Shown piece by piece: positions 36,054 through 52,117 of a stretch of DNA of 64,000 nt. Source of the DNA: an uncultured bacterium (lineage in GTDB: Bacteria; Bacteroidota; Bacteroidia; Sphingobacteriales; Sphingobacteriaceae); assembly GCA_903838995.1 (NCBI GenBank), contig CAIMAP010000056.1, positions 2,028 to 66,027 of the forward strand, read 5' to 3'. Under the pieces are notes generated by a model. That model saw nothing but the letters and a program-made list of their open reading frames with translations. It made no database searches and was not told where the DNA came from. Both the position numbers and the translations under genes were made by a program. The stretch's first letter is position 1. The number at the start of each line of letters is the position of its first letter.

Positions 36054-37382
36054 ATGAAAAAAAAGATTTTACTCTTATGGACTGCCTGTTTTGGATTTGG
36101 CTGTGCCCAGTTGCAAGCCCAAAGCCAAGCTTGGTCTTTAGAAAATTGCATTAGTTATGCCCTCGAAAATAATTTAACCATCAAGCAATATAAATTGAAT
36201 GTCGATTTGGCATCTATCGATTTGGATCAAAGCAAGAATGCGCTATTGCCATCTGTAAATGCAAGCGCATCTAATTCAAAAAATTATGGTTTGTCTGTTA
36301 ATCCAGTAACCAGTTCGTCGAGTTTCAGTAGCTACAATTCTTTCTCAACGGGCATCAATTCACAAGTCACTATTTTTGGTGCCGGACAAAAACTTTACAA
36401 TTACCAAGCGCAGACTTTCGATTTAGCGGCAGAGCGAGCGAGTTTAGCTAAAATCAAAAACGACATTACGCTAACAGTAATTAATTATTATTTAAATGTA
36501 TTGTACAATCAAGACCTAACGCTTGTTTCGCAAGAGCAATTAAAAATAAGTTTACAACAATTCGAAAGGGCGAATAAAAATTTTGAAGTAGGAAATAGCA
36601 CACAGGGAGATTTATTAGAAAGTAAAGCGCAATTAGCAAGAGACCAATTGAATTTAACCAATGCAGAAAATCAATTAGCGATTGCAAGGCTAAATTTATT
36701 GCAGTTATTAGATAGAGATCCTGCAGAAGTCATGTTGATTGAAAAGCCAGCAAATTTAATTCCTGCCTTAGATAAAAGCGAGCAGTATCAATTTACTGCG
36801 GTATATCAGGCTGCTGCAGAAAAACTGCCAGATGTTAAACTATACGATTTTAGATTTCAATCTGCGGCTAAAAGTGTGGCAATCAGTAAAGCGGTTTTAT
36901 TTCCTAGTTTAAGTTTTGGTGCAGGCCTTAATTCAAATTATGTTTCATTAGCACAAGAAAATTTTAAAGGTCAATTGCAAGATAACTTTGGGCAGTATTG
37001 GGGATTCAGTTTAAATGTGCCCATTTTCAATAGTAGAAATGCCAATGCTAATTTAAAAAGAGCGAAAATAAATTTAGCCAATGCCAATATCAATACGCAA
37101 ACAGCTAGGCTGAATTTAAGTAAATCTATAGCGCAAGCTTTAACAGATTTAAAAGCTGCTGAAAAAAAATATGAGTCAACGGCAAATAGTAATGTTGCCC
37201 TTAAAGAATCTTTTAAATATAATCAACAAAAATTCGAAGTTGGATTAATCAATGCAGTTGATTTTATCATATCAAAAAATAACTTAGCAAAGTCTGAAGC
37301 CGAACGCGTGCAAGCATTGTACGAGTTAATACTCAGACAAAAGCTTGTCGATTTTTATTTAGGAATTCCATTGTCATTTTAA
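36054..37382 (+). CDS. TolC-family outer-membrane efflux protein
   Basis: Signal peptide; two-repeat coiled-coil/beta architecture; 'LENCISYALENNLTIKQ' and 'ALYELILRQKLVDFYLG'. Confidence 0.88.
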   Translation: MKKKILLLWTACFGFGCAQLQAQSQAWSLENCISYALENNLTIKQYKLNVDLASIDLDQSKNALLPSVNASASNSKNYGLSVNPVTSSSSFSSYNSFSTGINSQVTIFGAGQKLYNYQAQTFDLAAERASLAKIKNDITLTVINYYLNVLYNQDLTLVSQEQLKISLQQFERANKNFEVGNSTQGDLLESKAQLARDQLNLTNAENQLAIARLNLLQLLDRDPAEVMLIEKPANLIPALDKSEQYQFTAVYQAAAEKLPDVKLYDFRFQSAAKSVAISKAVLFPSLSFGAGLNSNYVSLAQENFKGQLQDNFGQYWGFSLNVPIFNSRNANANLKRAKINLANANINTQTARLNLSKSIAQALTDLKAAEKKYESTANSNVALKESFKYNQQKFEVGLINAVDFIISKNNLAKSEAERVQALYELILRQKLVDFYLGIPLSF

Positions 37383-37392
37383 AACAAAAAAC

Positions 37393-38691
37393 ATGTTGAA
37401 CAAGAAAAATAATTTAATTAAATATTTAGTAATTGCAGTGGTAGTGTTAATTGCATTTGTAATTACTGGCAAAAAAATGGGATGGATTGGCGGTGTGGCT
37501 AATCAAAAAGTAGCAGTTGAAAAAGTTTCACTTAGAACAATTGTAGAAACTGTTTCTGCTAGTGGAAAAATTCAACCAGAAATAGAAGTGAAAATATCTT
37601 CAGATGTTTCTGGCGAAATTGTTTCTTTAATGGTTAAAGAGGGCCAAAAAGTTAAGCGTGGACAACTGCTTTGCAAAATTAGACCAGATATCTATGAATC
37701 TTATTTAGACAGGGCTTCGGCAGCTTTAAATACTTCAAAAGCGAATTTATCAAATGCAGAAGCACGATTTATTCAAACCGAACAAGCATACGAAAGAAAC
37801 TCAAAACTCATAAAAGATAAAATTATTTCTGAAGCAGATTTTGAAGTGATAAAAAGTAATTATTTATCGGCAAAAGCAGATGTGCAAGCAGCAAAGTTTA
37901 ATGTTAAAAGTGCAGAGGCATCTGTAAAAGAAGCAAAAGATAATTTATTTAAAACAACAGTGTTTTCTCCTGTAGATGGAACCGTTTCTAAATTAAATGT
38001 AGAATTAGGCGAGCGTGTATTAGGAACTTCTCAAATGACGGGTACCGAAATTATGCGCATTGCTAATTTAAATTCTATGGAAGTAAGTGTAGATGTGAAC
38101 GAAAACGATATCAATCGATTGTCTATTGGAGATACGGCAACAGTAGAAGTAGACGCTTTTCTTGATCAGCATTTTAAAGGAGTGGTTACTGAAATCGCAA
38201 ACTCTGCAAGTGTTGTAGGTGCTAGCGCAGACCAGGTTACTAATTTTCCGGTTAAGATTAGAATTTTGAGCGAGTCATATGCAAAATTAAATAGCAAAGA
38301 CAAAAATTTAGCATCACCATTAAGACCAGGATTATCTGCAACCGTAGAAATTCAAACAGAAAAAACAATTAATATTTTAACTGTCCCAATTCAATCTGTT
38401 ACGACAAGAGAAGATTCTGTAGACGATAAAAATATTGCTACTACAGCAGTTGTAGCAAGTACTTCGAGTATGAAAGAATTTGTTTTTGTAATAGAAAACA
38501 ATAAAGTAATTAAACTTCCAGTGAAGACCGGTATTCAAGACGATATGTATATTGAAATTAAAGAGGGTTTAAAAGAAGGACAGGAAGTGGTGGTTGCACC
38601 ATATTTAGCAATTTCTAAAATGTTAAAAGATGGAATGCAAATAGAAATAGTGACCAAAGAAGACTTATACACATCGGACGAGAAGAAGTAG
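37393..38691 (+). CDS. Efflux periplasmic adaptor (HlyD/MacA-like membrane fusion protein)
   Basis: N-terminal TM helix, lipoyl-like 'VSGEIVSLMVKEGQKVKRGQLL', coiled coil, and 'SPVDGTVSKLNVELGERV'. Confidence 0.88.
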   Translation: MLNKKNNLIKYLVIAVVVLIAFVITGKKMGWIGGVANQKVAVEKVSLRTIVETVSASGKIQPEIEVKISSDVSGEIVSLMVKEGQKVKRGQLLCKIRPDIYESYLDRASAALNTSKANLSNAEARFIQTEQAYERNSKLIKDKIISEADFEVIKSNYLSAKADVQAAKFNVKSAEASVKEAKDNLFKTTVFSPVDGTVSKLNVELGERVLGTSQMTGTEIMRIANLNSMEVSVDVNENDINRLSIGDTATVEVDAFLDQHFKGVVTEIANSASVVGASADQVTNFPVKIRILSESYAKLNSKDKNLASPLRPGLSATVEIQTEKTINILTVPIQSVTTREDSVDDKNIATTAVVASTSSMKEFVFVIENNKVIKLPVKTGIQDDMYIEIKEGLKEGQEVVVAPYLAISKMLKDGMQIEIVTKEDLYTSDEKK

Positions 38692-39923: not shown

Positions 39924-41225
39924 ATGAAAAAAGATTTTTTGTTTAAAACACTTTATTTGACAGGGTTATTCCTTGTGTTCATGAATGTTCAATCATTCGC
40001 GCAAGACACCATTAGGGTGATGCAATATAATCTTCTTCGTTATGGCGAATCAAATCAGCCACCTAGTACAAAAAACCCTTTACTTTCGACCATCATCAAT
40101 TATGTCAAACCTGATATATTTGGTTGTAACGAAATTTCTGCTACTGCAGATTATGCGCAAAACATTTTAACTGGGGCCCTTAATATTAATGGGGAAACCA
40201 AATGGAAAAGAGCGAAACTTTCTAAGGCTGGTGCAGATGCATCTTTATCCAATACGCTATTTTATAATTCAAATAAGTTTGAACTTATTTCTCAAGATAC
40301 CGTTTCTAAAGTGCAAAGAGAAATTACGGCATTCAATTTATTTTATAAAGATTCTAATCTTGTTAAAACAAAAGATACTATTTTCTTTACGGTACTTGTT
40401 TTACATTTAAAGGCTAGTAATGGTTCTGCAGAAGCAGCGACCAGAGCGGCTGAAACCCAACAGGTATCTAGGTATATGAAGAAATTTACCAAGCCTAAAA
40501 ATGTTTTGATTATGGGAGATTATAATATTTATACCCATACCGAATTGGCCTATCAAAATTTAATTGCGGATACTAATTTAATGGGAAGATTTTATGATCC
40601 ACTAAATAAACCAGGTGCTTGGAATAACAATGGAAGTTTTTCTTCTATTCATACGCAGTCAACTCATAGTGCAACAGGTGGAAGCTTTTCTGGCGGTGGC
40701 ATGGATGATCGATTTGATATTATGTTAGCAACTAAATCGATAATTTCAGATTCTTTGAAAGTTCGCATCTTACCGAATACTTATATTCCTATTGGTAATG
40801 ATGGCATGCATTTTAATTTAGCCTTAACGGATTTACCAGCAAACACTTCGGTGCCTTCTGACGTTTTAGGATCCTTGTATAATATGTCGGATCATTTACC
40901 CATAAGGGCAGATTTTGTTTTTACGCCTTCAAAGCCTGCAGTACAAGGGCTTTCCTTACAGGCAGTTCAATTTTCGCAACAAATTCAAGTAGTCAACCCC
41001 GTAAAAAATAATTTTGAAATTCACTTTAGTGCAAACTTGTTGAATCAAATAATTAATTTAAAAATATATAATCAATCCGGGAATTTAATTGAAAGTCAAA
41101 AAATTGCAACTGCGAATTCTGATTTTCAAATCACACCTACAGCATCATTACCTGAAGGGATTTATTTATTGAGATTTGAAAACAAAGCAGGTTTGTCGGT
41201 CATTAAAAAAATAGCAAAGTATTAA
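39924..41225 (+). CDS. Secreted endonuclease/exonuclease/phosphatase (EEP) family hydrolase with a T9SS C-terminal sorting domain
   Basis: Signal peptide. EEP motifs are 'IRVMQYNL', 'FGCNE', 'IMGDYNI', 'DRFDIML' and 'SDHLPIRADF'. The CTD reads 'IKIYNQSGNLI...EGIYLLRFENKAGLSVIKKIAKY'. Confidence 0.85.
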   Translation: MKKDFLFKTLYLTGLFLVFMNVQSFAQDTIRVMQYNLLRYGESNQPPSTKNPLLSTIINYVKPDIFGCNEISATADYAQNILTGALNINGETKWKRAKLSKAGADASLSNTLFYNSNKFELISQDTVSKVQREITAFNLFYKDSNLVKTKDTIFFTVLVLHLKASNGSAEAATRAAETQQVSRYMKKFTKPKNVLIMGDYNIYTHTELAYQNLIADTNLMGRFYDPLNKPGAWNNNGSFSSIHTQSTHSATGGSFSGGGMDDRFDIMLATKSIISDSLKVRILPNTYIPIGNDGMHFNLALTDLPANTSVPSDVLGSLYNMSDHLPIRADFVFTPSKPAVQGLSLQAVQFSQQIQVVNPVKNNFEIHFSANLLNQIINLKIYNQSGNLIESQKIATANSDFQITPTASLPEGIYLLRFENKAGLSVIKKIAKY

Positions 41226-41226
41226 G

Positions 41227-43341
41227 ATGTTTTTTAAGCAATATTTGAATCGTTATTTTGGGTTATTGGCTGCCTGCATTATTCCGCTAACAGGATTTTC
41301 GCAAGCTTCATTCGATGAAAAATTAACGACAGCAGGAAATATTAGAATGACCATTAATAACCTCGGAATGATTGGAAATGCATTCAAAGGTTCTTATAAT
41401 ATTTTAGCATATCCTTCGTGTGAGTTTCCGGCTAATTCTGGTATAGAACATTTATTCCAGGGTGGTTTATGGATTGGTGCAATGATCAATGGTTCTCAAG
41501 TTGCTGTAAGTTCGGGAGCTACAGATGATGCCGCAGGTTATACAACGGGCAAAAGCGGTTTTGAGTTTACCGCGGCACTGGGTGCTAAAATAAAAGAAAG
41601 ATCTAGCTTAATAGATAATCCATTATACGAAACCAATGCTGTTTCGCATCAAGATTTTCTTTCCGATTTTACAGATAAAAATATTGTTGTTCCTGGAACA
41701 AACATTGCGATTAGCAATCATAATTTTCCACTTGGCGCCGATGTGCATTTTGAAGCCTATAATTATAATTTTAATTTTGCCAATTATTTTGTCATTCTAA
41801 ATTATACCATTACCAATAACAGTGCGACAAATTGGGATAGTGTTTTTATTGGTTATTGGAAAGATGGAGTGGTTAGAAATGTAAATGTTACTCCACCTGG
41901 GGGAAGTGCTTTTTACAATAAAGGCGGAAATGGCTTTTTAGATTCTTTAGATATTGCTTACGAGTTTGACGCTAACGGCGACCCAGGATTTACCGAAACC
42001 TATGTTGGCTTAAAGTATCTTGGATCGATAGACCCTGCAGGCTTTGCACATCCATTATTGAGGCCAAACATGAAAATCAATTATAATTCATGGCAGTTTC
42101 AAAACTCTGCCGATCCATTATATTTTTCACCATCAGACGATAATCAGAAGTATGGTAAAATGACGGCGGGTTTAAATCATCGTGCCGATTGGCAAACCGT
42201 TATTCGTCCTTCCTTAAGTCAGCCGAATAATAGATCGCATTTAATGGCCGTTGGTCCATTCGTTCAAATTAAACCAGGGGAAACTATTAATATTTCTTTT
42301 GCATTAGTTTGCGCTAAAAAGAACGAAGATGGAAAGCCAAACACGGCAGATAATGATTTTCAAAAACAAATTTTAGTACAAAACTCAAAGTTTGCACAAA
42401 CGGCATATAATGGCGAAGACATTAATTTTAATGGCTTATTAGATGCGGGTGAAGATAGAGATGGTAATGGGGTAATTACTCGTTTTGTTTTACCTGCGCC
42501 TCCAGTAATTCCAAGAATGAAAGTGATTGCAACTGAAAATAAAATGGAAATTTATTGGACTAAAAATGCGGAGGCATCGGTCGATCCAATTTCTAAGAAA
42601 AAAGATTTCGAAGGTTATCGATTATATAAAACGGCTTTGGGTTTTGATGTAAAGCAAACGCAAGACATTGCCAAGGCTTTAAAATTAGTGGCAGAATTTG
42701 ATCGCGCAGATAATACTTTGTTTAGCAATACAGGATTGCAATCTATTACATTGCCCGACTCTGTTACTTTTGGCGAGTTAGGCCCATTAGATGAGCCAAT
42801 CTATTATCATTATAAATACACTTTTGATAATTTACAAAATGGATGGCAACATGCCATTGCCTTAACTGCATTTGACCAAGGAGATAAAGTAAATAATTTA
42901 GAATCATTAGAATCTAGTACGCTACCAAATATTAAAAGAGTATTTCCAGGAATGCCGGCAAATGATGGCTTTGAAAATGGAGAACCATTTGTATATCCTA
43001 ATCCTTATTATGGATTAGCCGCTTGGGAAGGTTTAAGTACCAATCCCGAAAGTAAAAAAATATATTTCGCAAACCTACCCGCAAATTGCGTCGTAAAAAT
43101 TTTTACTTCTTCTGGAGATTTAGTAGATCAGTTTACGCATAACGAAAGTTATAATGGTTCGGATATTAAATGGAATAATATATACGCAGATCCAAGCAAG
43201 AATCAGTTTTCAGGTGGAGAACATGCTTGGGATTTATTATCTGCCGATAATCAAATAATAGCTAGAGGAATTTATATGTTTTCTGTAAAAGACAATAAAA
43301 CCGGTAAAGTTGTTAACGGGAAATTCGCATTAATTAAATAA
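41227..43341 (+). CDS. Secreted 704-aa protein of unknown function with a T9SS-CTD/FlgD-Ig-like C-terminus
   Basis: Signal peptide 'LTGFSQA|S' and 'EHLFQGGLWIGAMINGSQV'. Has a Ca-binding-like loop 'DAGEDRDGNGVI' and no HExxH. C-terminus is 'FVYPNPYYG...VVKIFTSSGDLV...ARGIYMFSV...GKFALIK'. Starts 1 nt after the EEP stop codon. Confidence 0.6.
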   Translation: MFFKQYLNRYFGLLAACIIPLTGFSQASFDEKLTTAGNIRMTINNLGMIGNAFKGSYNILAYPSCEFPANSGIEHLFQGGLWIGAMINGSQVAVSSGATDDAAGYTTGKSGFEFTAALGAKIKERSSLIDNPLYETNAVSHQDFLSDFTDKNIVVPGTNIAISNHNFPLGADVHFEAYNYNFNFANYFVILNYTITNNSATNWDSVFIGYWKDGVVRNVNVTPPGGSAFYNKGGNGFLDSLDIAYEFDANGDPGFTETYVGLKYLGSIDPAGFAHPLLRPNMKINYNSWQFQNSADPLYFSPSDDNQKYGKMTAGLNHRADWQTVIRPSLSQPNNRSHLMAVGPFVQIKPGETINISFALVCAKKNEDGKPNTADNDFQKQILVQNSKFAQTAYNGEDINFNGLLDAGEDRDGNGVITRFVLPAPPVIPRMKVIATENKMEIYWTKNAEASVDPISKKKDFEGYRLYKTALGFDVKQTQDIAKALKLVAEFDRADNTLFSNTGLQSITLPDSVTFGELGPLDEPIYYHYKYTFDNLQNGWQHAIALTAFDQGDKVNNLESLESSTLPNIKRVFPGMPANDGFENGEPFVYPNPYYGLAAWEGLSTNPESKKIYFANLPANCVVKIFTSSGDLVDQFTHNESYNGSDIKWNNIYADPSKNQFSGGEHAWDLLSADNQIIARGIYMFSVKDNKTGKVVNGKFALIK

Positions 43342-43375
43342 GAAGTATAAAATTTAAAAAAAAAATAAAAAAACC

Positions 43376-45508
43376 ATGAACAAAAAATTACTCACAATGG
43401 CCATATTGTTGTCTGCTGCATTTACAGCACAAGCACAATATCCTTTAAAAACAATTCAAGCAGTACAAACTGTTTCTCAGCAAGATTTAGCAGCAGGTAT
43501 TGAGGCTTCTTCTATTCCATCTACCGATACCATTAGAATCCGTGGTGTCGTAATAATGGATGCTGGACTTTCTACTTTAGTAGGCGGAAAACAAATTTGG
43601 ATTCAAGCAAATAATGGTTCATCATTTTCTGGTATTGATGTATATCAAAACTTTCCTGGCAGTACGGTAACCGGTGATGCAGGAACTGGCATTCTTTCTT
43701 TAGTTGCGGGTGACTCAGTAGAAATAACTGGTAATGTGTTAGAATATCAAGGGGAAACAGAATTTGTGCCAGTGAATACTACACCTGCTACACCTATTCA
43801 AATTTTAGGCGGCGGAATTACAGTTAAATCAAAATTAATTACTGCAGCAGAATTAAATGACGCCAACAGAAATAATATTTTAACAACTGGCGAACAATAC
43901 GAAGGCATGTATGTAGAGATTCGCAACTTAACTGTTTCTACCGTTGATTATTTTTCGAATGGTACGCGTGTAAGTTTCAATATTGTAGATGCTGCTGGAA
44001 ATAAAATAAATGTTTCTGACAGATTTAAAGCTTTTAAATTACCTGCAGCGGGTGGAACTTTTGTGCCACCAAATGTTGGTGATGTTTTAACAAGCATTAA
44101 AGGAGTTGTTGTTCATTCATTAAACAATCGTGGTTATGAATTGCATGTTTTTGATGCATCTCAAATTGTGTATGGTGCAGCAGCGCCAACTATTTCACAA
44201 ATTACGCGTTCTATTAAAGTACCAACAAGTACAGATGCAATTACCGTAACAGCAAATATTACCGATAAAGACGGTGTTAACTCTGCAGATTTATATTATG
44301 CAGTTGGTGTAAATAGCACATCTTATACATCGGTTGCAATGACTGCAAACGGAAACAGCTATTCGGCTGTGATACCTGCACAAGCAGATGGTTCATTTAT
44401 TAAATATTATATTTCTGCAAAAGATAATTCAACTGGACAATTGGTAAGTCGTATTCCAAATGTGCCTACAGAAGATCCTAAATTTTATGTAGTGCGTAAT
44501 GCAGGAATGGGAATTTATGATGTACAATATACTCCCTTTAAATCTGGAAATTCTGGATTCGCAGGACAAGAAGTTACCGTAAGTGGTATTGTTACTTCAT
44601 CGGCAAACGATTTAGGTTATATATTTATTCAACAAGAAAACCAATTGAATTGGGCTGGTGTAATGTGTATTGGAAGCACTACACTTGCTACCTTAGCTAT
44701 TGGCGATAAAGTTACCGTTACCGGAACTGTTCGCGAAAATTTTGGTTTTACACGTATCGAAGCCATTACCTCTGTTGCTAAAAATGGAACGGGTACCATT
44801 ACGCCAATTGTATTGGTAGCAGATTCATTCCGTAAATATAGTTTCACAGGTACAGAACCATACGAAGGTATGTTGGTGAAATTTGTAGGGAACTCAGGAT
44901 CGACTTTAAAAGTAGTTAATTCAAATGCAGATGATCCTAGTAATTTTGCAGAATACCGTGTAGGTCCAGATACAACAGATGCTGGTGCTGGTTGCAGAAT
45001 AATTGCAGGTAGAGTAACTTCATCAGTTTATTCTTCGTTAAATGTTTCATATGTAAATGATACCATTTGGGCTACCATATCAGGTATTATGAAAGTGGCT
45101 CCAATTGCAGTTCAAAAAGGAGATGCAATGACATCTGTTACAGGTATCATGGATTATTCTTTTAGTAATTGTAAATTAATGCCTCGTAACAATGCAGATT
45201 TTGAAAATTATGTAAGGTTAAATGTTGGCGTAAATAGCAACGCAATTAATTTAGGAAAAGTGGTTGCTTATCCAAATCCAACTAGCAACCAAATTAATTT
45301 TGATTATATCTTACCTGCAAACGCAGCAAATTGCGCAATTGTAGTATACGACTTATTAGGTCAAGAAGTGGCAAGCACTAACATTAACACTTTAAGTGGT
45401 AGTGCAAGTATTGCAACTAGCAACTTAGCACAAGGAACTTATCTCTATTCAATTACTTCAAGTAATTTAGGACAATTGAATAACGGTAGATTTGTAGTGG
45501 TAAAATAA
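43376..45508 (+). CDS. Secreted 710-aa protein with two OB-fold-like modules (as in ExeM/NucH extracellular nucleases), an Ig-like domain and a T9SS CTD
   Basis: Signal peptide. Modules are 'IRIRGVVIMD...IWIQANNG..GIDVY...GDSVEITGNVLEYQGETEF' and 'VTVSGIVTSS...IFIQQEN...GDKVTVTGTVRENFGFTRIE'. 'YEGMYVEI' and 'YEGMLVKF' also occur. CTD is 'AYPNPTSNQINF...GTYLYSI...GRFVVVK'. Confidence 0.6.
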   Translation: MNKKLLTMAILLSAAFTAQAQYPLKTIQAVQTVSQQDLAAGIEASSIPSTDTIRIRGVVIMDAGLSTLVGGKQIWIQANNGSSFSGIDVYQNFPGSTVTGDAGTGILSLVAGDSVEITGNVLEYQGETEFVPVNTTPATPIQILGGGITVKSKLITAAELNDANRNNILTTGEQYEGMYVEIRNLTVSTVDYFSNGTRVSFNIVDAAGNKINVSDRFKAFKLPAAGGTFVPPNVGDVLTSIKGVVVHSLNNRGYELHVFDASQIVYGAAAPTISQITRSIKVPTSTDAITVTANITDKDGVNSADLYYAVGVNSTSYTSVAMTANGNSYSAVIPAQADGSFIKYYISAKDNSTGQLVSRIPNVPTEDPKFYVVRNAGMGIYDVQYTPFKSGNSGFAGQEVTVSGIVTSSANDLGYIFIQQENQLNWAGVMCIGSTTLATLAIGDKVTVTGTVRENFGFTRIEAITSVAKNGTGTITPIVLVADSFRKYSFTGTEPYEGMLVKFVGNSGSTLKVVNSNADDPSNFAEYRVGPDTTDAGAGCRIIAGRVTSSVYSSLNVSYVNDTIWATISGIMKVAPIAVQKGDAMTSVTGIMDYSFSNCKLMPRNNADFENYVRLNVGVNSNAINLGKVVAYPNPTSNQINFDYILPANAANCAIVVYDLLGQEVASTNINTLSGSASIATSNLAQGTYLYSITSSNLGQLNNGRFVVVK

Positions 45509-45515
45509 TTTAAAC

Positions 45516-45551
45516 AGCTGCTTGTGTTGAAAAATGCAAGCAGCTTTTTTA
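45516..45551 (+). terminator. Hairpin plus T tract inside the surface locus (terminator or attenuator)
   Basis: 9-bp stem AGCTGCTTG / CAAGCAGCT with a 12-nt loop, followed by TTTTTTATTT. Lies 8 nt after the 45508 stop codon. Confidence 0.6.
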
Positions 45552-45563
45552 TTTCAAATTCTA

Positions 45564-47051
45564 ATGAAACAAACACGCATTTTATTTTTTCTGTTAGTAA
45601 CAACCATTTTCTCTGCTTGTATAAAAGAAGACGAATTAAAGTTGAATACGAACCCAAACACGAATATATTTTTAGAAAAAATAGATCGTGTAGGCGAAAA
45701 TAGATTAAATACAAATGTAACCATGCATTGGTCGGCCGATGACCGAGACGGCTATATTATAGGATATGAAGTATCTTTAGATAACATCACTTGGTCTTTT
45801 ACCACCAAACAAGACAGCGTTTTTAGGTTTAGTATTTTAAATGGGGATACAACAGACATTAACTTGTATGTTCGTGCAATTGACAACGATGGCAATAAAG
45901 ATTTAACGCCTGCTTATTTAAAAATTCCAATAAAAAACACGATTCCTACCGTTGCATTTGATGACAATTTGATTAAATGCGATTCGGTATATTCAGTTTT
46001 TTCTTTGCTTTTTTCTGCAAACGATTTAGATGGTAACGAAACAATAGATTCAATTTATTTAAAAATAAACAATGGAAATTGGTTTGCACTTTCTAATCAA
46101 TCAACCTTTGTTACCTTAGTACCCAATAATCCAACAATTGCAGGTAACGACCAAGCAAAAGTTTATTTAGGTTACGATGCCATTAAATTAAACAAGCAGA
46201 TGAATGGCTTGTTAGTAGATGGTGCCAATCAAGTATACCTCAAAGCCCGCGATTTTTCTGGTGCAGAGAGTGTCATAGATACCTTAGCGCCATTCTTTTT
46301 AAGAAGAAAAACTTCCGACCTATTGGTCTTAGATGCCTATAATATTGCAACAACTCCTAATGCCGATGTGGTTTATAAAGAAGTATTGCAATCGGTTTAT
46401 GGCGCTGTAGACTATTATGATTTTTTTAGACAAAACAAAGCTTATTTTCCATCTATTTGGAAGCCAACATTTAGCTTGTTTTTGAATTTGTACGATAAGG
46501 TGTTTTGGTATTCTGATAATATTGCTAGTAATAACAATGCCATGCTATTAGAAAGTGGAGCATCCGCAATTCAAAATTATTTAAATGCAGATGGCAAATT
46601 ATTTGTTTGTTCTGATTTTGCAAACAACGCTTACCCATTGGCTTTTTCAAAAACATCACCCATTTTTCAGTTTTCTCCAGCAGATAGTTTTCAAACTTTT
46701 TTTGCGGCTAATCAAAAAGCAAGTATCCCTAAAGATTCGCTGTTACTGCCCAATACGGCTGCAGGCGCAGGTTACCCAACTTTGCTTGCCAGTTCATTTG
46801 CAGACGCAGTTGATCCCTTTTTTGAAAAATCAAATGCGACGGTTATTTATACTGCAAATACTAAAAGAAATTCGGGTGTGACGAATACTAAAGTGGTGAT
46901 GGCCAAAACGCAAAACGCAAATGGTAAAACCAACCAAGTATTTTGCTCAATAGATTTGTTTAAAATGCAAGGCGATGCCAATGCAAATGGACAACAGGAT
47001 GAATTAAAACAATTGTTTCAAAAGATATTTTTAGACGAATTTAATTGGTAA
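45564..47051 (+). CDS. Lipoprotein of unknown function (two Ig-like 'W..D.DG' modules plus a C-terminal alpha/beta-like region)
   Basis: Lipobox 'TIFSAC|IKE' if translation starts at the 45564 ATG. The track start at 45534 sits in the hairpin loop. 'MHWSADDRDGYIIGYEVSLDNITW', 'VRAIDNDGNKD' and 'FSANDLDGNETIDSIYLKINNGNW'. Confidence 0.65.
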   Translation: MKQTRILFFLLVTTIFSACIKEDELKLNTNPNTNIFLEKIDRVGENRLNTNVTMHWSADDRDGYIIGYEVSLDNITWSFTTKQDSVFRFSILNGDTTDINLYVRAIDNDGNKDLTPAYLKIPIKNTIPTVAFDDNLIKCDSVYSVFSLLFSANDLDGNETIDSIYLKINNGNWFALSNQSTFVTLVPNNPTIAGNDQAKVYLGYDAIKLNKQMNGLLVDGANQVYLKARDFSGAESVIDTLAPFFLRRKTSDLLVLDAYNIATTPNADVVYKEVLQSVYGAVDYYDFFRQNKAYFPSIWKPTFSLFLNLYDKVFWYSDNIASNNNAMLLESGASAIQNYLNADGKLFVCSDFANNAYPLAFSKTSPIFQFSPADSFQTFFAANQKASIPKDSLLLPNTAAGAGYPTLLASSFADAVDPFFEKSNATVIYTANTKRNSGVTNTKVVMAKTQNANGKTNQVFCSIDLFKMQGDANANGQQDELKQLFQKIFLDEFNW

Positions 47052-49873
47052 TGAAAAAAAGCATTCTTTATATATTGCTATTTATTTTTTCTTTTGTAAC
47101 ATTTGCTTCTGCGCAAATTCAGACGGGTGTATTAAAAGGTAAAGTAGTTGATAGAAAAACAAAAGAGCCTATTATAGGAGCAACGGTAACCATTGTGGGC
47201 ACTTACTTTGGGGTGAGTACCGATATCAACGGTAATTTTCAAATCAATGCCATTAAACCAGGAGAGTATACTGTGAAAGCAATTTATTTAGGCTATAAAG
47301 AATTGCAGTATAACGGGGTGAAAATAAATGCGACTGTTCCTACACAATTAAATTTATCCTTGACAGAAGTTACCGCAGAAATTGGTGCGGTAGAAGTATT
47401 AGGCCAAAGAACCATTGTCGATTTAGAATCTGGCAAATCGAGTTCGAAAGTTACTTCAGATGACATCAAAGACATGAGTGTGAAAGATGTGCAGTCTATT
47501 GTTGCCAATCAAGCTGGGGTGAGTCAAAATCCAGATGGCTTGCAGATAAGAGGTGGCCGAGTTTATGAAACACAATATTTAGTAGATGGAATTAATGCGC
47601 AAGATCCATTGGCAGGAACAGGCTTTGGCGTCGACATTGCATCCAATGCAGTAAATGATATCGAAGTAATAACCGGTGGTGTTGGAGCAGAATATGGCGA
47701 AGGCACATCGGGCGTGGTACTTACCAGAATTAGAGAAGGTGGAGACAAAGTAAAGTTTGGTGGAAGTTATTATCGAGATAATTTAGGTATTAATGAATCG
47801 AGTAATTGGAATACGGATATGCTCAGCCTTAATTTTGGATCTCCTGTACCATTTACCAAAAAGAAACTTACTTTTTTTAGTAGCGCCAACATGGAATTGA
47901 CGGATGAGTTTTTTAAAAATCCAGCTAATCAATTGCATAGTTCTATGCTTCGTAAAAATGATTCTATATGGGCACCACGCGAAGACAATAAATGGTCGAG
48001 TACTTTCAAGCTAACTTATAATATTGCACCAGGTAAAAAATTATCTATATCAAATCAATCAAGTTTAAATATCAATCAAAATACAAGATCGCTGCAAGTA
48101 GTAGGAAACAATGCTATTGTAACGCCTGGGTATCAATATTTATTTAGCTTGAATATGGATAATGCGGCAACTTATACGCATAAATCAAACTTGTTAATTA
48201 TTCAATATTTAAATTTATTCTCTAAAGAATTATCGATGGATGTTTCTTTTGCAAGACTCTTTACCAATTTAAGAGCCGATGCAAATGGTCGTCCATTCAG
48301 ACCCTCTACCATTGATCAAATTTTTGATCCTGCTTCGATTGTTTCGGATCCTGCCACTTTATTTAATCCTGGCGATTCGGTAATTTATGTAAATCCTGGA
48401 CCAGGATTATATAATAATGGTGGAGTGTCTACCCTATGGCACGATCACTATGCGCAAGAAAATACCTTCAAAGTAAAATTTAATTATACACCTAACAAAG
48501 CCAATTTTATTAGTTTTGGTTTAGAGCATAAAGAGCAAGAGTATCAGTGGGTAGACGTTACCAGACCTTGGATTGGTGCACCAATAATTATTGATGATAC
48601 TACTACCACGGCTTCGTCGAGTATTGGACAATCCAACGATATTTGGAAAGTAAATCCAGCAACAGGCGGTTTGTTTTTTCAAGATGAATTACGTTACAAG
48701 GGAATCATTGTCAATGCAGGTATACGATTAAATTATTGGATGCCAGGTAAATTTGCAGATCAAGCAGTGGCAGATCCTAACGCACCAGTAATTGCAGCCA
48801 TTAGAGAATCGTATATAAAAAATAGCACCGAAATATTTGGACGCAGAACAAAATTTAGGTTATTACCAAAACTTAGAATTTCTTTTCCTGTTTCTGAAAA
48901 TAATGTATTGTATTTTAATTACGGACACCTTAGCAGATTACCACATCCTCGCTTTGTCTATGCAGGTTTAGATCCTGTTTATCAAAACCGATCGTTCTTA
49001 GCCAACTTGGGTAATCCAGATTTAAATCCCGAAGTAACTGTTTCTTACGAAGTGGGAATAAAAACACAAGTAACCGCTAATTTTGCTATTACTGCTACTG
49101 CATTTTATAACGATAAATTTGATTATATCGTGAGTAGAAGAATTATTGTAAAAGACCAAACCGGTCGATTTGTCGAAAAGAATTTTAATATCAATCAAGA
49201 CTATGCAAGAATTCGTGGCTTCGAATTAACCTTGAATAGAAGAGTGCAAAAATATTTGAGTACAACCTTTAGTGCGGCCTATCAAATAGCAACTGGTAAA
49301 TCTAATTCTGCACAAGAATCGCAATTACAAATTTTACAAACAGGTTCGGTATCACCAACGGTAGAGCAGTACTTAGCTTGGGACAGACCCCTTGATTTAA
49401 AATTAATGATTGTATTTAAACCAGACACTTCCTTTCATATTGGACGAATTAATTTTAATAAAGTAAGGGTGTTTTTAAATTCAACTTATAAATCTGGTTT
49501 AAGATATACACCTTATTATCAAAATGGAGTAGAGCCCAATGGCAGACCTATATACGAGCCAGACGAATTGAATCCATTTAGTAAAATAGGTGCTGCTTGG
49601 TGGAATACAGATTTAAAAATCACCAAAGATATTTCCATTAAAAGAGGCCAACAAATTAGTTTGAGTATCGAGTTTAAAAATATTTTTGATAATAAAAATG
49701 CAGCCATTATTAATCCTATAACAGGAAAAGCCTACGAATACGGTGATCCGCTGCCTAATACTTATCGCGATCCAATGTATCCAGATCCACAAGACAACGG
49801 GGTGCCACCATTTAACCCTGCAAGGTATTTAACCCCAAGGCAAGTGTTGGCAGGAATTAGTTGGCAGTTTTAA
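47051..49873 (+). CDS. TonB-dependent outer-membrane transporter with an N-terminal carboxypeptidase-regulatory-like domain (no SusD partner)
   Basis: Signal peptide. 'GKVVDRKTKEPIIGATVTIVGTYFGVSTDINGNFQI..KPGEYTV' is the N-domain. Plug is 'DGLQIRGGRVYETQYLVDGI'. Terminal 'LAGISWQF'. The ATG overlaps the upstream stop codon (TAATG). The track start at 47045 is a TTG codon. Confidence 0.88.
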   Translation: MKKSILYILLFIFSFVTFASAQIQTGVLKGKVVDRKTKEPIIGATVTIVGTYFGVSTDINGNFQINAIKPGEYTVKAIYLGYKELQYNGVKINATVPTQLNLSLTEVTAEIGAVEVLGQRTIVDLESGKSSSKVTSDDIKDMSVKDVQSIVANQAGVSQNPDGLQIRGGRVYETQYLVDGINAQDPLAGTGFGVDIASNAVNDIEVITGGVGAEYGEGTSGVVLTRIREGGDKVKFGGSYYRDNLGINESSNWNTDMLSLNFGSPVPFTKKKLTFFSSANMELTDEFFKNPANQLHSSMLRKNDSIWAPREDNKWSSTFKLTYNIAPGKKLSISNQSSLNINQNTRSLQVVGNNAIVTPGYQYLFSLNMDNAATYTHKSNLLIIQYLNLFSKELSMDVSFARLFTNLRADANGRPFRPSTIDQIFDPASIVSDPATLFNPGDSVIYVNPGPGLYNNGGVSTLWHDHYAQENTFKVKFNYTPNKANFISFGLEHKEQEYQWVDVTRPWIGAPIIIDDTTTTASSSIGQSNDIWKVNPATGGLFFQDELRYKGIIVNAGIRLNYWMPGKFADQAVADPNAPVIAAIRESYIKNSTEIFGRRTKFRLLPKLRISFPVSENNVLYFNYGHLSRLPHPRFVYAGLDPVYQNRSFLANLGNPDLNPEVTVSYEVGIKTQVTANFAITATAFYNDKFDYIVSRRIIVKDQTGRFVEKNFNINQDYARIRGFELTLNRRVQKYLSTTFSAAYQIATGKSNSAQESQLQILQTGSVSPTVEQYLAWDRPLDLKLMIVFKPDTSFHIGRINFNKVRVFLNSTYKSGLRYTPYYQNGVEPNGRPIYEPDELNPFSKIGAAWWNTDLKITKDISIKRGQQISLSIEFKNIFDNKNAAIINPITGKAYEYGDPLPNTYRDPMYPDPQDNGVPPFNPARYLTPRQVLAGISWQF

Positions 49874-49913
49874 TTAAACGCAAATGAATTATTTTATTTA
49901 TAAAAATATTGAA

Positions 49914-50915
49914 ATGAAAAAATACTTAATCATGTTGATGTGTATGATGAGTAGTATGTTGGTGCAGGCGCAATTGATGCCAAATTTAGGTGGTCAAAGA
50001 GCAGGTACTTCGGCATTTAATTTTTTAAAATTAAATTTCAATCCAAGGGCAACGGCTATGGCTGGCGCTAGTGCTGCAATGCCCGGCGATGCCTACGCTG
50101 CAGCTGCAAATCCTGCGGCATTAATTGACATCAAAGAGCTAAGTTTTGCTTTATCTTCTCAACAATATTATGCTGGTGCAAATACCAGTTATTTAGCGGC
50201 AGTGTTGCCAACTAAACATTATAGCGCTTGGGCATTTCAATTGCAAAGTTACCGAACCGATGCCATGGAAAAACGCACCGAATTTCAACCCTATGGAACA
50301 GGCGAATATTTTTATGGACAAAATTTAGCTTTTGGTCTTAGTTACAGTAAAATTCTTTCTGACTATTTTAGTTATGGAATTTCTGCTAAGTATGTATATG
50401 AAGGTATTGATAATTACAGCGCACATACTGGGGTAGTTGATTTAGGATTTTTGTATAAAACAGATTTTAAAGATTTAAAATTTGCCGTATTGCTTTCTAA
50501 TTTTGGCATCAATACAAAAATAGATGGACAAACAAATACTTTAGTTGCTTTCAATAATTCGACAGAAGATATCAACGCTTATGCAGCGCCAACACTATTT
50601 AAAATGGGCGTTTCGCTTGTGCCCTATAAATCTGGCAGAAATCAACTCTTAGTGGCAGCAGAGTTGCAGCATCCAAACGACAATTCAGAAAACATTCGTT
50701 TGGGTTTAGAATATAGTTGGATGGAAATGTTTTTTGTGAGGGCAGGCTACAAGCTAGGATTGAAAGACCAAACCACACCAACATTTGGCGCAGGTATTCG
50801 CAGTCATTTTGGACGCTATCCTTTAAATATAACTTATGCTGCAGATCCACATCCAAACTTGGGATTTGCACAACAAATTGGGGTAGCCATTACATTAACT
50901 AAAGAAACAAGGTAA
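49914..50915 (+). CDS. PorV/PorQ-family outer-membrane beta-barrel protein
   Basis: Signal 'MLVQAQ'. The 'GGQRAGTSAFNFLKLNFNPRATAMAGASAAMPGDAYAAAANPAAL' N-terminal motif is typical of the PorV/PorQ family. Beta-strand periodicity throughout. The ATG at 49914 is preferred. Confidence 0.7.
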   Translation: MKKYLIMLMCMMSSMLVQAQLMPNLGGQRAGTSAFNFLKLNFNPRATAMAGASAAMPGDAYAAAANPAALIDIKELSFALSSQQYYAGANTSYLAAVLPTKHYSAWAFQLQSYRTDAMEKRTEFQPYGTGEYFYGQNLAFGLSYSKILSDYFSYGISAKYVYEGIDNYSAHTGVVDLGFLYKTDFKDLKFAVLLSNFGINTKIDGQTNTLVAFNNSTEDINAYAAPTLFKMGVSLVPYKSGRNQLLVAAELQHPNDNSENIRLGLEYSWMEMFFVRAGYKLGLKDQTTPTFGAGIRSHFGRYPLNITYAADPHPNLGFAQQIGVAITLTKETR

Positions 50916-52117
50916 TGATTCAAGGTATAAAAAAATTATTTATCTTATTTTTTGCAATTGCTTTTTTGGCAAGTTGTGAAAATCCATTTGGTGATAAAAC
51001 TAATTTAAGTTTTATTGATGTACCTAATTACGACGAGCAGCCCATTGCTTTTGTTCCCATTCAACCTGCGTTAAAAGATTTCGATTATCCAAGTGCTGTT
51101 TTTATTGGCTACGACGAGTTGGTATATATTGCAGATCAAGGAAGGTCAATTGTTTATTGCTTCGATCAAAGTGGAAAGAAAATTTCACAATTAAGCATTC
51201 CAGGTTTGAAATCTGTTGCAATGGATAGAAGTCTCAATCTATTGGCACTAGGGTCAATAGACACACTCATCAATGGCAATACATTTAAGTTAGATGCGGT
51301 ATTCAGATATGAGTTAGCTTCATCCGATGGTTATGGATTAGCAAAAGCAAAACTTGTTAAAAGAACAATTCATCCATTTTATTTTAAAACAAGTTTTACT
51401 ACTTCAGATACAGCTACGCATTTTAATGCAATAAGTATCATGGCAGATAATAATTATTACATCACTCGATCGGGGCCATCTAATTCGTCGACGCAAATTG
51501 GTGGGCCAGATGATGCCATACTTGTTTTTAATTCGCGTGATAAATTTGTAACAACTGTTAATGTACAAACAGCACAAGGATTAATGAGCGATTATTTCAA
51601 AAAACCATTTGCCATTACTACACTTGCAAAAGGCCCGCAATCGCCAATTGTAAAGCAAGGCGGCGATTTTATATTTACTTCTGTTAATCCTGGAACAACC
51701 ATCAAAACACAATACATTAGTTTTCTTTCTTCCGAATTTGGTTCGAGCTATTCTTTAAACACGGCGCTTGCAGGACAAGACACTTCTAAAGCAAATGGAT
51801 TTATTTATTCACCTGATAAATTTTCTTCGCCAGTTGGGGTGACCATTGCAGGCGATGGTAGTAATTATATTTTTGTGGCAGATGCGGCCAAAGATTCTGT
51901 TTATTTATTTTCGTTAAATGGATTAGAAGGCATTCAGCCGCCTCCAGGTTATGCAGCAAAAAAATACATTAAAGTTTCTTTTGGAGGCAGTGGATTAGGC
52001 CCTAAACAATTTAACAGACCAGTTGCGGTAGCATATCACAATCAAATTCTATATGTGTGCGATGCAGGCAATGGCAGGGTTACTCGATTCAAATTAAGTA
52101 CCGAATTTATCAATTAA
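50915..52117 (+). CDS. NHL-repeat beta-propeller lipoprotein
   Basis: Lipobox 'AFLASC|ENP'. NHL-like repeats are 'PSAVFIGYDELVYIADQGRSIVYCFDQSG', 'PVGVTIAGDGSNYIFVADAAKDSVYLFSLNG' and 'NRPVAVAYHNQILYVCDAGNGRVTRFK'. The ATG overlaps the upstream stop codon. Confidence 0.7.
   Translation: MIQGIKKLFILFFAIAFLASCENPFGDKTNLSFIDVPNYDEQPIAFVPIQPALKDFDYPSAVFIGYDELVYIADQGRSIVYCFDQSGKKISQLSIPGLKSVAMDRSLNLLALGSIDTLINGNTFKLDAVFRYELASSDGYGLAKAKLVKRTIHPFYFKTSFTTSDTATHFNAISIMADNNYYITRSGPSNSSTQIGGPDDAILVFNSRDKFVTTVNVQTAQGLMSDYFKKPFAITTLAKGPQSPIVKQGGDFIFTSVNPGTTIKTQYISFLSSEFGSSYSLNTALAGQDTSKANGFIYSPDKFSSPVGVTIAGDGSNYIFVADAAKDSVYLFSLNGLEGIQPPPGYAAKKYIKVSFGGSGLGPKQFNRPVAVAYHNQILYVCDAGNGRVTRFKLSTEFIN

Follow-up and report, generated by a model that had tools for sequence, protein, structure and literature searches.

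A twin-module surface protein of the type IX secretion system and its gene cluster, a candidate system for extracellular nucleic-acid capture and uptake in Bacteroidota

The DNA analysed here is a stretch of 64,000 nucleotides (the window) from an uncultured bacterium of the Sphingobacteriaceae (contig CAIMAP010000056.1, positions 2,028 to 66,027 of the forward strand), and this report concerns one protein that it encodes, the product of gene C, together with the outer-membrane gene cluster in which this gene lies. Open reading frame (ORF) calls place seven genes, named A to G, in the same direction between positions 39924 and 52117. They are separated by 1-34 nt or overlap, the gap between C and D being the sole exception. 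The host genome, 99% complete and with a GC content of about 36%, comprises about 2.0 Mb in 214 contigs, and its closest relatives are lake metagenome bins labelled Sphingobacteriales.

Gene C (43376..45508, + strand) encodes a 710-amino-acid type IX secretion system (T9SS) cargo with no catalytic domain. The first 115 positions of the NCBIfam model ExeM_NucH_DNase (NF033681) match it twice (E 6.8e-17), and a whole-genome search with this model placed both copies in C, at residues ~402-514 and ~110-195. Module 1 (residues 22-265; 43439..44170, +) is of the oligonucleotide/oligosaccharide-binding (OB) type found at the N-terminus of ExeM/NucH nucleases, judged by a match to positions 46-119 of NF033681 (E 2.5e-5) and by hhalign. 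Module 2 (residues 373-615; 44492..45220, +) is of the same ExeM/NucH non-catalytic N-terminal kind, with a match to positions 1-115 (E 6.8e-17) that is again accompanied by hhalign. Between them lies a middle domain (residues 266-372; 44171..44491, +) resembling an Ig/E-set β-sandwich, whose predicted structure is all-β (pLDDT ~90) and for which family members give weak DUF7743/E-set matches. The protein ends with a T9SS type A C-terminal sorting domain (45248..45505, +) that reaches 42 bits with PF18962 (cut-off 27) and also exceeds the cut-off of TIGR04183. Profile searches gave no match of C to catalytic models, and searching the PDB with the C sequence returned matches to the sorting domain only.

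The two modules, of ~240 residues each, are homologous to one another (hhalign 98.5%, E 1.6e-15, ~200 columns). For the comparison with ExeM, we aligned them to full-length ExeM/NucH sequences only. Module 2 aligns with residues 38-272 of such a protein from a sampled Bacteroidota genome (97.3%, E 2.7e-11, 202 columns), that is, with the entire region preceding its endonuclease/exonuclease/phosphatase (EEP) domain, while module 1 gives a partial alignment with the ExeM N-terminus at 84%. The profile-profile comparison proposed in the initial annotation of this DNA, which was made from the letters alone, returned nuclease-associated modules. That annotation had also described each module by a pattern opening with V.V.G.V and leading to YEGM. 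Both motifs are present in C, where YEGMYV comes after GDSVEITGNVLEYQGETEF and YEGMLV after GDKVTVTGTVRENFGFTRI. In module 1 the first V.V.G.V is IRIRGVV, which makes the quoted pattern approximate there. In the structural check that it had proposed, a Foldseek search with the whole-chain model of C, the top match, and the one informative match, is a p204 HIN-dsDNA complex, although at a low template modelling (TM) score, and the other matches are mostly generic multi-Ig/Fn3 proteins with TM ~0.15.

Gene A (39924..41225, +) encodes a 433-amino-acid protein made of a signal peptide, an EEP-fold nuclease-like domain (residues ~28-340, nt 40005-40943, +; assigned from profile matches, catalytic residues and hhalign) and a T9SS type A sorting domain (residues ~358-433). 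The N-termini of A and C are both signal-peptide-like. The sorting domain of A scores 37.4 bits with PF18962 (cut-off 27) and is also over the cut-off of TIGR04183. Otherwise A matches EEP nuclease models only, all below their cut-offs: MnuA, its best named match rather than ExeM, at 2.7e-11, the EEP part of ExeM/NucH at 2.9e-5 and xth at 0.0047. The general EEP models of Pfam do not match A at E <= 0.1. The initial annotation had read A as an EEP fold plus a sorting domain and C as two modules with their own sorting domain and no catalytic part, and both descriptions hold. An alignment of 21 orthologues shows an invariant EEP catalytic set in A (N36, E70, H161, D199, N201, D262/D265, D323 and H324), and they correspond in alignment to NE, H-x-K, GD-x-N and SDH, the motifs of ExeM-type enzymes. 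Profile searching of the PDB with A gave weak EEP matches, the top one being DNase gamma (1.3e-4), followed by nocturnin and exonuclease III; nocturnin apart, every match at E < 0.01 is a nuclease or a nucleic-acid phosphodiesterase. Inositol phosphatases gave no match at E <= 10, and a sphingomyelinase appeared only at 0.08. The earlier caution about the substrate of this fold is kept, with nucleases prevailing among the matches of A.

The EEP domain of A aligns with that of ExeM/NucH at a probability of 98-99% (hhalign). The ExeM-type domain reaches a score of 173 (E 9e-32) with the DdbB-type domain (PF19580), and these two score 113 and 47, respectively, with A. Since the ExeM and DdbB types are closer to each other than to A, the domain of A is an outlier and not of the ExeM type. 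We consider it somewhat probable, from these comparisons and from the gene order described below, that A is an EEP nuclease exported separately and recruited to the B-G cluster in the host lineage.

Gene B (41227..43341, +) encodes a secreted protein of 704 amino acids with an N-terminal β-supersandwich, an Fn3-like domain and a PorZ-like C-terminal domain, its last ~120 residues resembling the C-terminal domain of PorZ (NF052228, E 8.3e-5). Its AlphaFold2 model has a pLDDT of 78.9. With glycoside phosphorylases and GH116 enzymes this model shares only the β-supersandwich, and no catalytic domain was found. Gene D (45564..47051, +) encodes a lipoprotein (lipobox FSAC) with Fn3-like modules and a C-terminal domain without family match; family and structure searches with D gave no match. 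The 3' end of D overlaps the start of gene E (47045..49873, +), which encodes a 942-amino-acid TonB-dependent transporter with a CarboxypepD_reg domain, a plug and a barrel, and no SusD partner. Gene F (49884..50915, +) encodes an outer-membrane barrel of the PorV/PorQ family, scoring 150.6 bits for a family cut-off of 90 and ranking third of the five paralogues of the genome. The canonical PorV-family gene, searched as a T9SS core component, scores 428 bits and is accompanied by four paralogues. F matches PorQ (2.5e-26) better than PorV (2.5e-15) and, together with the PorZ-like tail of B, this suggests that B and F may be a PorZ-PorQ-like anchoring pair within a transporter operon. Gene G (50915..52117, +), the last conserved gene of the cluster, encodes an NHL-repeat lipoprotein.

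Between C and D, immediately 3' of the C stop codon, a sequence scan found a terminator-like hairpin of 13 pairs, after which comes a T run (45516..45545, +). This hairpin may terminate or attenuate an A-B-C transcript before D-G. The start listed for D in the ORF table (45534) falls inside it, which makes the ATG at 45564 the likelier start. A scan for sigma-70 promoters gave a signal no higher than background. Upstream of A, the window carries gpsA. The same position is occupied in five loci of close relatives by a PKD-repeat cargo of 1530-1760 amino acids with a CHU_C-type T9SS tail (Pfam check on L006 alone) followed by a PorP/SprF gene. Further upstream, at 36054-38691, translations indicate a TolC-like outer-membrane factor and an HlyD/MacA-like adaptor, with no pump gene before gpsA.

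The C family gave 329 database matches, and its full-length architecture was found in 80 related loci at 37-96% identity, a conservation that places the pattern far above chance; the twin-module layout is retained in distant genomes at ~30% identity. Among the 80 loci, a complete B ORF was found in 69, D in 63 and E in 43, while A lies directly upstream in 28. B is among the best-conserved members of the cluster. Judged by this distribution, C is a member of an old, stable family whose fixed partners are B and D, usually with E-F-G, and not A. In one lineage (18 loci) B-C-D is separated from E-F-G; an E orthologue (56-60% identity) was found elsewhere in the genome in five of five such cases tested, and F was not detected within 1.5 kb of this orthologue. 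Likewise, the five genomes tested that carry B-C-D without an adjacent A all have an A orthologue elsewhere. Homologues of A in genomes without C share no neighbourhood and stand alone in unrelated contexts. Among uncultured Bacteroidota with small genomes from fresh and marine waters, the cluster is common. We found no description of this T9SS-linked cluster in the literature searched; it is conserved widely and is apparently undescribed.

The gene that borders the cluster varies by lineage, yet it is repeatedly a T9SS-exported nuclease. An A-type EEP protein stands upstream of B in 28 loci and in the window, and directly after G in three distant genomes. In eight Flavobacteriales-type loci, the position after G is taken by an Endonuclease I (PF04231) with a sorting domain; in these cargos, of 746-783 amino acids, no OB module is detectable in the N-terminal ~400 residues. 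A phospholipase D (PLD)-type nuclease follows G in five distant loci, and in a further one (L065) it lies two genes after G, behind PhoD. This PLD-type cargo combines an optional lamin-tail domain, one OB module, an Fn3 domain, two PLDc_2 (NucT-like) domains and a sorting domain, and represents at these six loci a PLD-fold counterpart of the ExeM/NucH architecture. PhoD occurs after G or beside A in six loci. Glycoside hydrolases and peptidases were not seen at any of the loci examined. As far as gene content tells, the nuclease is an interchangeable add-on. The occurrence of nucleases of three folds unrelated to one another (EEP, Endonuclease I and PLD), in at least four arrangements, is hard to account for unless the cluster handles nucleic acid.

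The PLD-linked module also connects C to proteins known from DNA uptake. By hhalign, the C modules align with it at ~98% (E ~1e-13; 97.7% for module 1), and it aligns in turn with DdbD-like DUF5689 proteins at 95.9% (E 5e-9) and with the ExeM N-terminus at 89.6%. Within the C family, eight of 15 members match DUF5689 and seven of 15 match OB-fold nucleic-acid-binding models. These links suggest, with a probability that we place a little above one half, that the OB-type modules of C are the same module as that of ExeM/NucH, of certain PLD-type nucleases and of DUF5689 proteins such as DdbD. The host genome encodes a second nuclease-less OB-module protein, on contig C186 (2576-5671, +). This T9SS cargo of 1031 amino acids contains four Calx-beta domains, a single OB module of the PLD-nuclease/DUF5689 type (residues ~643-840, local hidden Markov model (HMM) E 5e-28) and a sorting domain, and it is not beside a transporter on its 7.5-kb contig. 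A Calx-beta T9SS cargo encoded on a short contig gives the sole Pfam DUF5689 match of the genome and is not a DdbD.

Known systems were compared with this locus. In ExeM of Shewanella oneidensis, deletion of the OB region abolishes nuclease activity, and the region is needed in cis (PMC6085458). In Bacteroides thetaiotaomicron, DUF5689 corresponds to DdbD of the ddbABCDEF locus, a protein proposed to bind DNA as the partner of the TonB-dependent transporter DdbC; DdbD has a HIN/p202-like structure and the locus has three active nucleases (10.1101/2025.03.18.642099; PMC12478041). In Riemerella anatipestifer, RA0C_RS04915/RS04920, a barrel and a DUF5689 protein, are essential for natural transformation (PMC8459023). 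The canonical Ddb arrangement, with a PF19580 nuclease, a CarboxypepD_reg transporter and a DUF5689 protein of 450-480 amino acids, was recovered in the sampled genomes.

C, and module 2 especially, shares with ExeM/NucH the OB-type region, the YEGM motif and the closing strand G-I/V-L-x-Y-x-F...KL-P, and A has the same set of EEP catalytic residues. Membership of this family is set at 300 bits over the whole protein in NF033681; C scores 61.5 bits and A 23.2, and no ORF of the genome reaches the cut-off. Unlike the one-chain design of ExeM/NucH, the modules are in C only and the EEP domain in A only, with gene B between them; moreover, C carries the module twice and the EEP domain of A falls outside the ExeM/DdbB grouping. 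Export here is by a T9SS tail, whereas ExeM/NucH use a GlyGly-CTERM/rhombosortase signal.

The likeness to Ddb lies in the model of C, which may resemble the HIN-dsDNA complex at the low TM already mentioned, and in the secreted nuclease of the locus (A, or EEP, Endonuclease I or PLD proteins in relatives), a trait taken as characteristic of loci of the Ddb/Riemerella type. By contrast with Ddb, the surface parts carry T9SS tails and not lipoprotein signals, the OB protein has a twin-module architecture with a DUF5689 link that is transitive for the C of the window, and the conserved B, D, PorQ-like barrel F and NHL lipoprotein G have no Ddb counterparts. E was also considered as a DdbC orthologue and rejected: an HMM built from 10 DdbC-like proteins found nothing among the ORFs of the genome. 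From this comparison of sequences, ddbABCDEF and the Riemerella transformation locus are the closest known systems, and the locus of the window is not a member of that family. The barrel family of F, the PorZ-like C-terminus of B and the type A sorting domains on A and C also recall the T9SS attachment complex PorZ-PorQ/PorV, except that F is the third-ranked paralogue, in a transporter operon and outside the core secretion genes.

Taken together, these comparisons make it reasonably probable, in our view, that C is a non-enzymatic T9SS surface protein at the core of an outer-membrane cluster, B-C-D-E-F-G, for the capture, cleavage and uptake of extracellular nucleic acid. Domain homologies, conservation of catalytic residues, synteny and nuclease alternation suggest the following course, each step of which we infer. 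The T9SS would secrete A, B and C, which would be held at the cell surface, possibly by the PorQ-like barrel F. C would bind extracellular DNA, and possibly RNA, and A would cleave the bound nucleic acid in trans. The fragments would then be imported by the TonB-dependent transporter E with the lipoproteins D and G, and be used mainly as a source of nucleotides or phosphorus. Proteins with a 5'-nucleotidase domain are encoded in the host genome, as are ComEC and DprA, so that both downstream routes, nucleotidase and ComEC/DprA, are open there. The initial annotation had placed binding and cleavage on separate surface-attached proteins of one operon next to a TonB-dependent transporter and had suggested a role in capture, cleavage and uptake. 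The arrangement itself stands, with binding-type modules and a cleavage-type enzyme on separate T9SS cargos of one co-directional locus with such a transporter; as to the role, the nuclease alternation favours nucleic acid as the substrate, and the function is a plausible one.

Several observations weigh against this assignment. At E <= 0.1, the C protein of the window gives no match to PF18942 (DUF5689), and its direct hhalign comparison with DdbD-like proteins is weak (4.6%), so that the link between C and DUF5689 is transitive, through the PLD-linked OB module. E is no nearer to DdbC-type transporters than to TonB receptors of the ordinary kind: with the E-family HMM, DdbC-like proteins reach 19-34 bits and the 11 best other TonB receptors of the host 40-125 bits. 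Co-occurrence of C and A is loose, since among 201 sampled genomes of the phylum a C-like protein is found in 51, an A-like protein in 30 and both in 13. In Foldseek searches, the resemblance of B is limited to the N-terminal sandwich found in enzymes of the GH94/GH116 type (TM ~0.25), and the searches gave no functional clue for B, D or G. Finally, the C modules are net acidic (pI 4.1-5.3), which is unusual for unspecific DNA binders; the ExeM N-termini, DdbD-like proteins and PLD-linked modules are as acidic, and acidity fails to discriminate among the hypotheses.

Some of these points would be expected if B-G imported another substrate (a glycan, peptide or organophosphate, for example) bound by the OB-type modules, with the nucleases and PhoD nearby just for the removal of matrix DNA or for phosphate scavenging in parallel. 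Oligosaccharides are also ligands of OB folds, the modules of C are acidic, the N-terminal supersandwich of B is like GH94/GH116 domains and E resembles an ordinary TonB receptor, while the PhoD neighbours are consistent with general phosphate scavenging. We nevertheless regard this explanation as unlikely, given that three unrelated nuclease folds have been recruited to one cluster in separate arrangements, that the module is fused to EEP and PLD nucleases and also occurs in the DNA-uptake protein DdbD, and that the loci examined showed neither glycoside hydrolase nor peptidase.

Nucleic acid could also cross the outer membrane as long DNA destined for ComEC-dependent uptake, as proposed for the Riemerella pair of TonB-dependent transporter-like and DUF5689 proteins, with the nucleases trimming or limiting it. 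The essential role of that pair (PMC8459023) and the presence of ComEC and DprA in the host genome would agree with natural transformation. However, E is not a barrel of the Riemerella/DdbC type, the DdbC-family HMM being without match in the genome, and the nearby endonucleases, PhoD and nucleotidases suit degradation better; ComEC and DprA are near-universal, both being found in 10 of 14 control genomes. This makes transformation an improbable primary role of the cluster.

That A and C arose by fission of one ExeM/NucH gene into a two-chain nuclease in which A is inactive without C, a literal form of the apparent split named in the initial annotation, is very unlikely: module 2 of C does span the entire ExeM/NucH N-terminal region, the two EEP domains do align at high probability and the OB region is needed in cis in ExeM (PMC6085458), but the EEP domain of A is an outlier to the ExeM and DdbB types, the unrelated gene B separates A from C, C has two modules and an extra domain and is conserved independently of A (adjacent in 28 of 80 loci), genomes lacking C hold homologues of A that stand alone, in other lineages A is replaced by Endonuclease I or PLD nucleases, and a full-length ExeM/NucH over the cut-off was found in one of the 201 sampled genomes of the phylum and not in that of the host.

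Returning to the capture and uptake of nucleic acid by the cluster, a broader proposal can be advanced tentatively, at less than even confidence. B-G could be a phylum-wide, possibly FCB-wide (Fibrobacteres-Chlorobi-Bacteroidetes), T9SS-coupled machine for DNA import, in which a PorQ-like barrel anchors the twin-OB binder and the PorZ-tailed B on a SusD-less transporter, and into which nucleases of at least three unrelated folds plug. If so, it would solve, for a second time and independently, the problem that Ddb and the Riemerella system solve.

In lakes, sediments and guts, extracellular DNA makes up a major reservoir of phosphorus, nitrogen and genes, and the passage of DNA through the outer membrane of Bacteroidota was first outlined between 2021 and 2025, from Riemerella and Bacteroides. 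Most likely, on the strength of homology and gene order, the locus described here falls among the TonB-dependent DNA utilisation or uptake loci that pair an OB-type binder with secreted nucleases. If this is correct, it would be a separate, T9SS-based version of the Riemerella and Bacteroides DNA-uptake systems and would give a function to a large unannotated family of "T9SS sorting domain-containing" proteins, for which the exchangeable nuclease modules offer a comparative handle on the function of the cluster.

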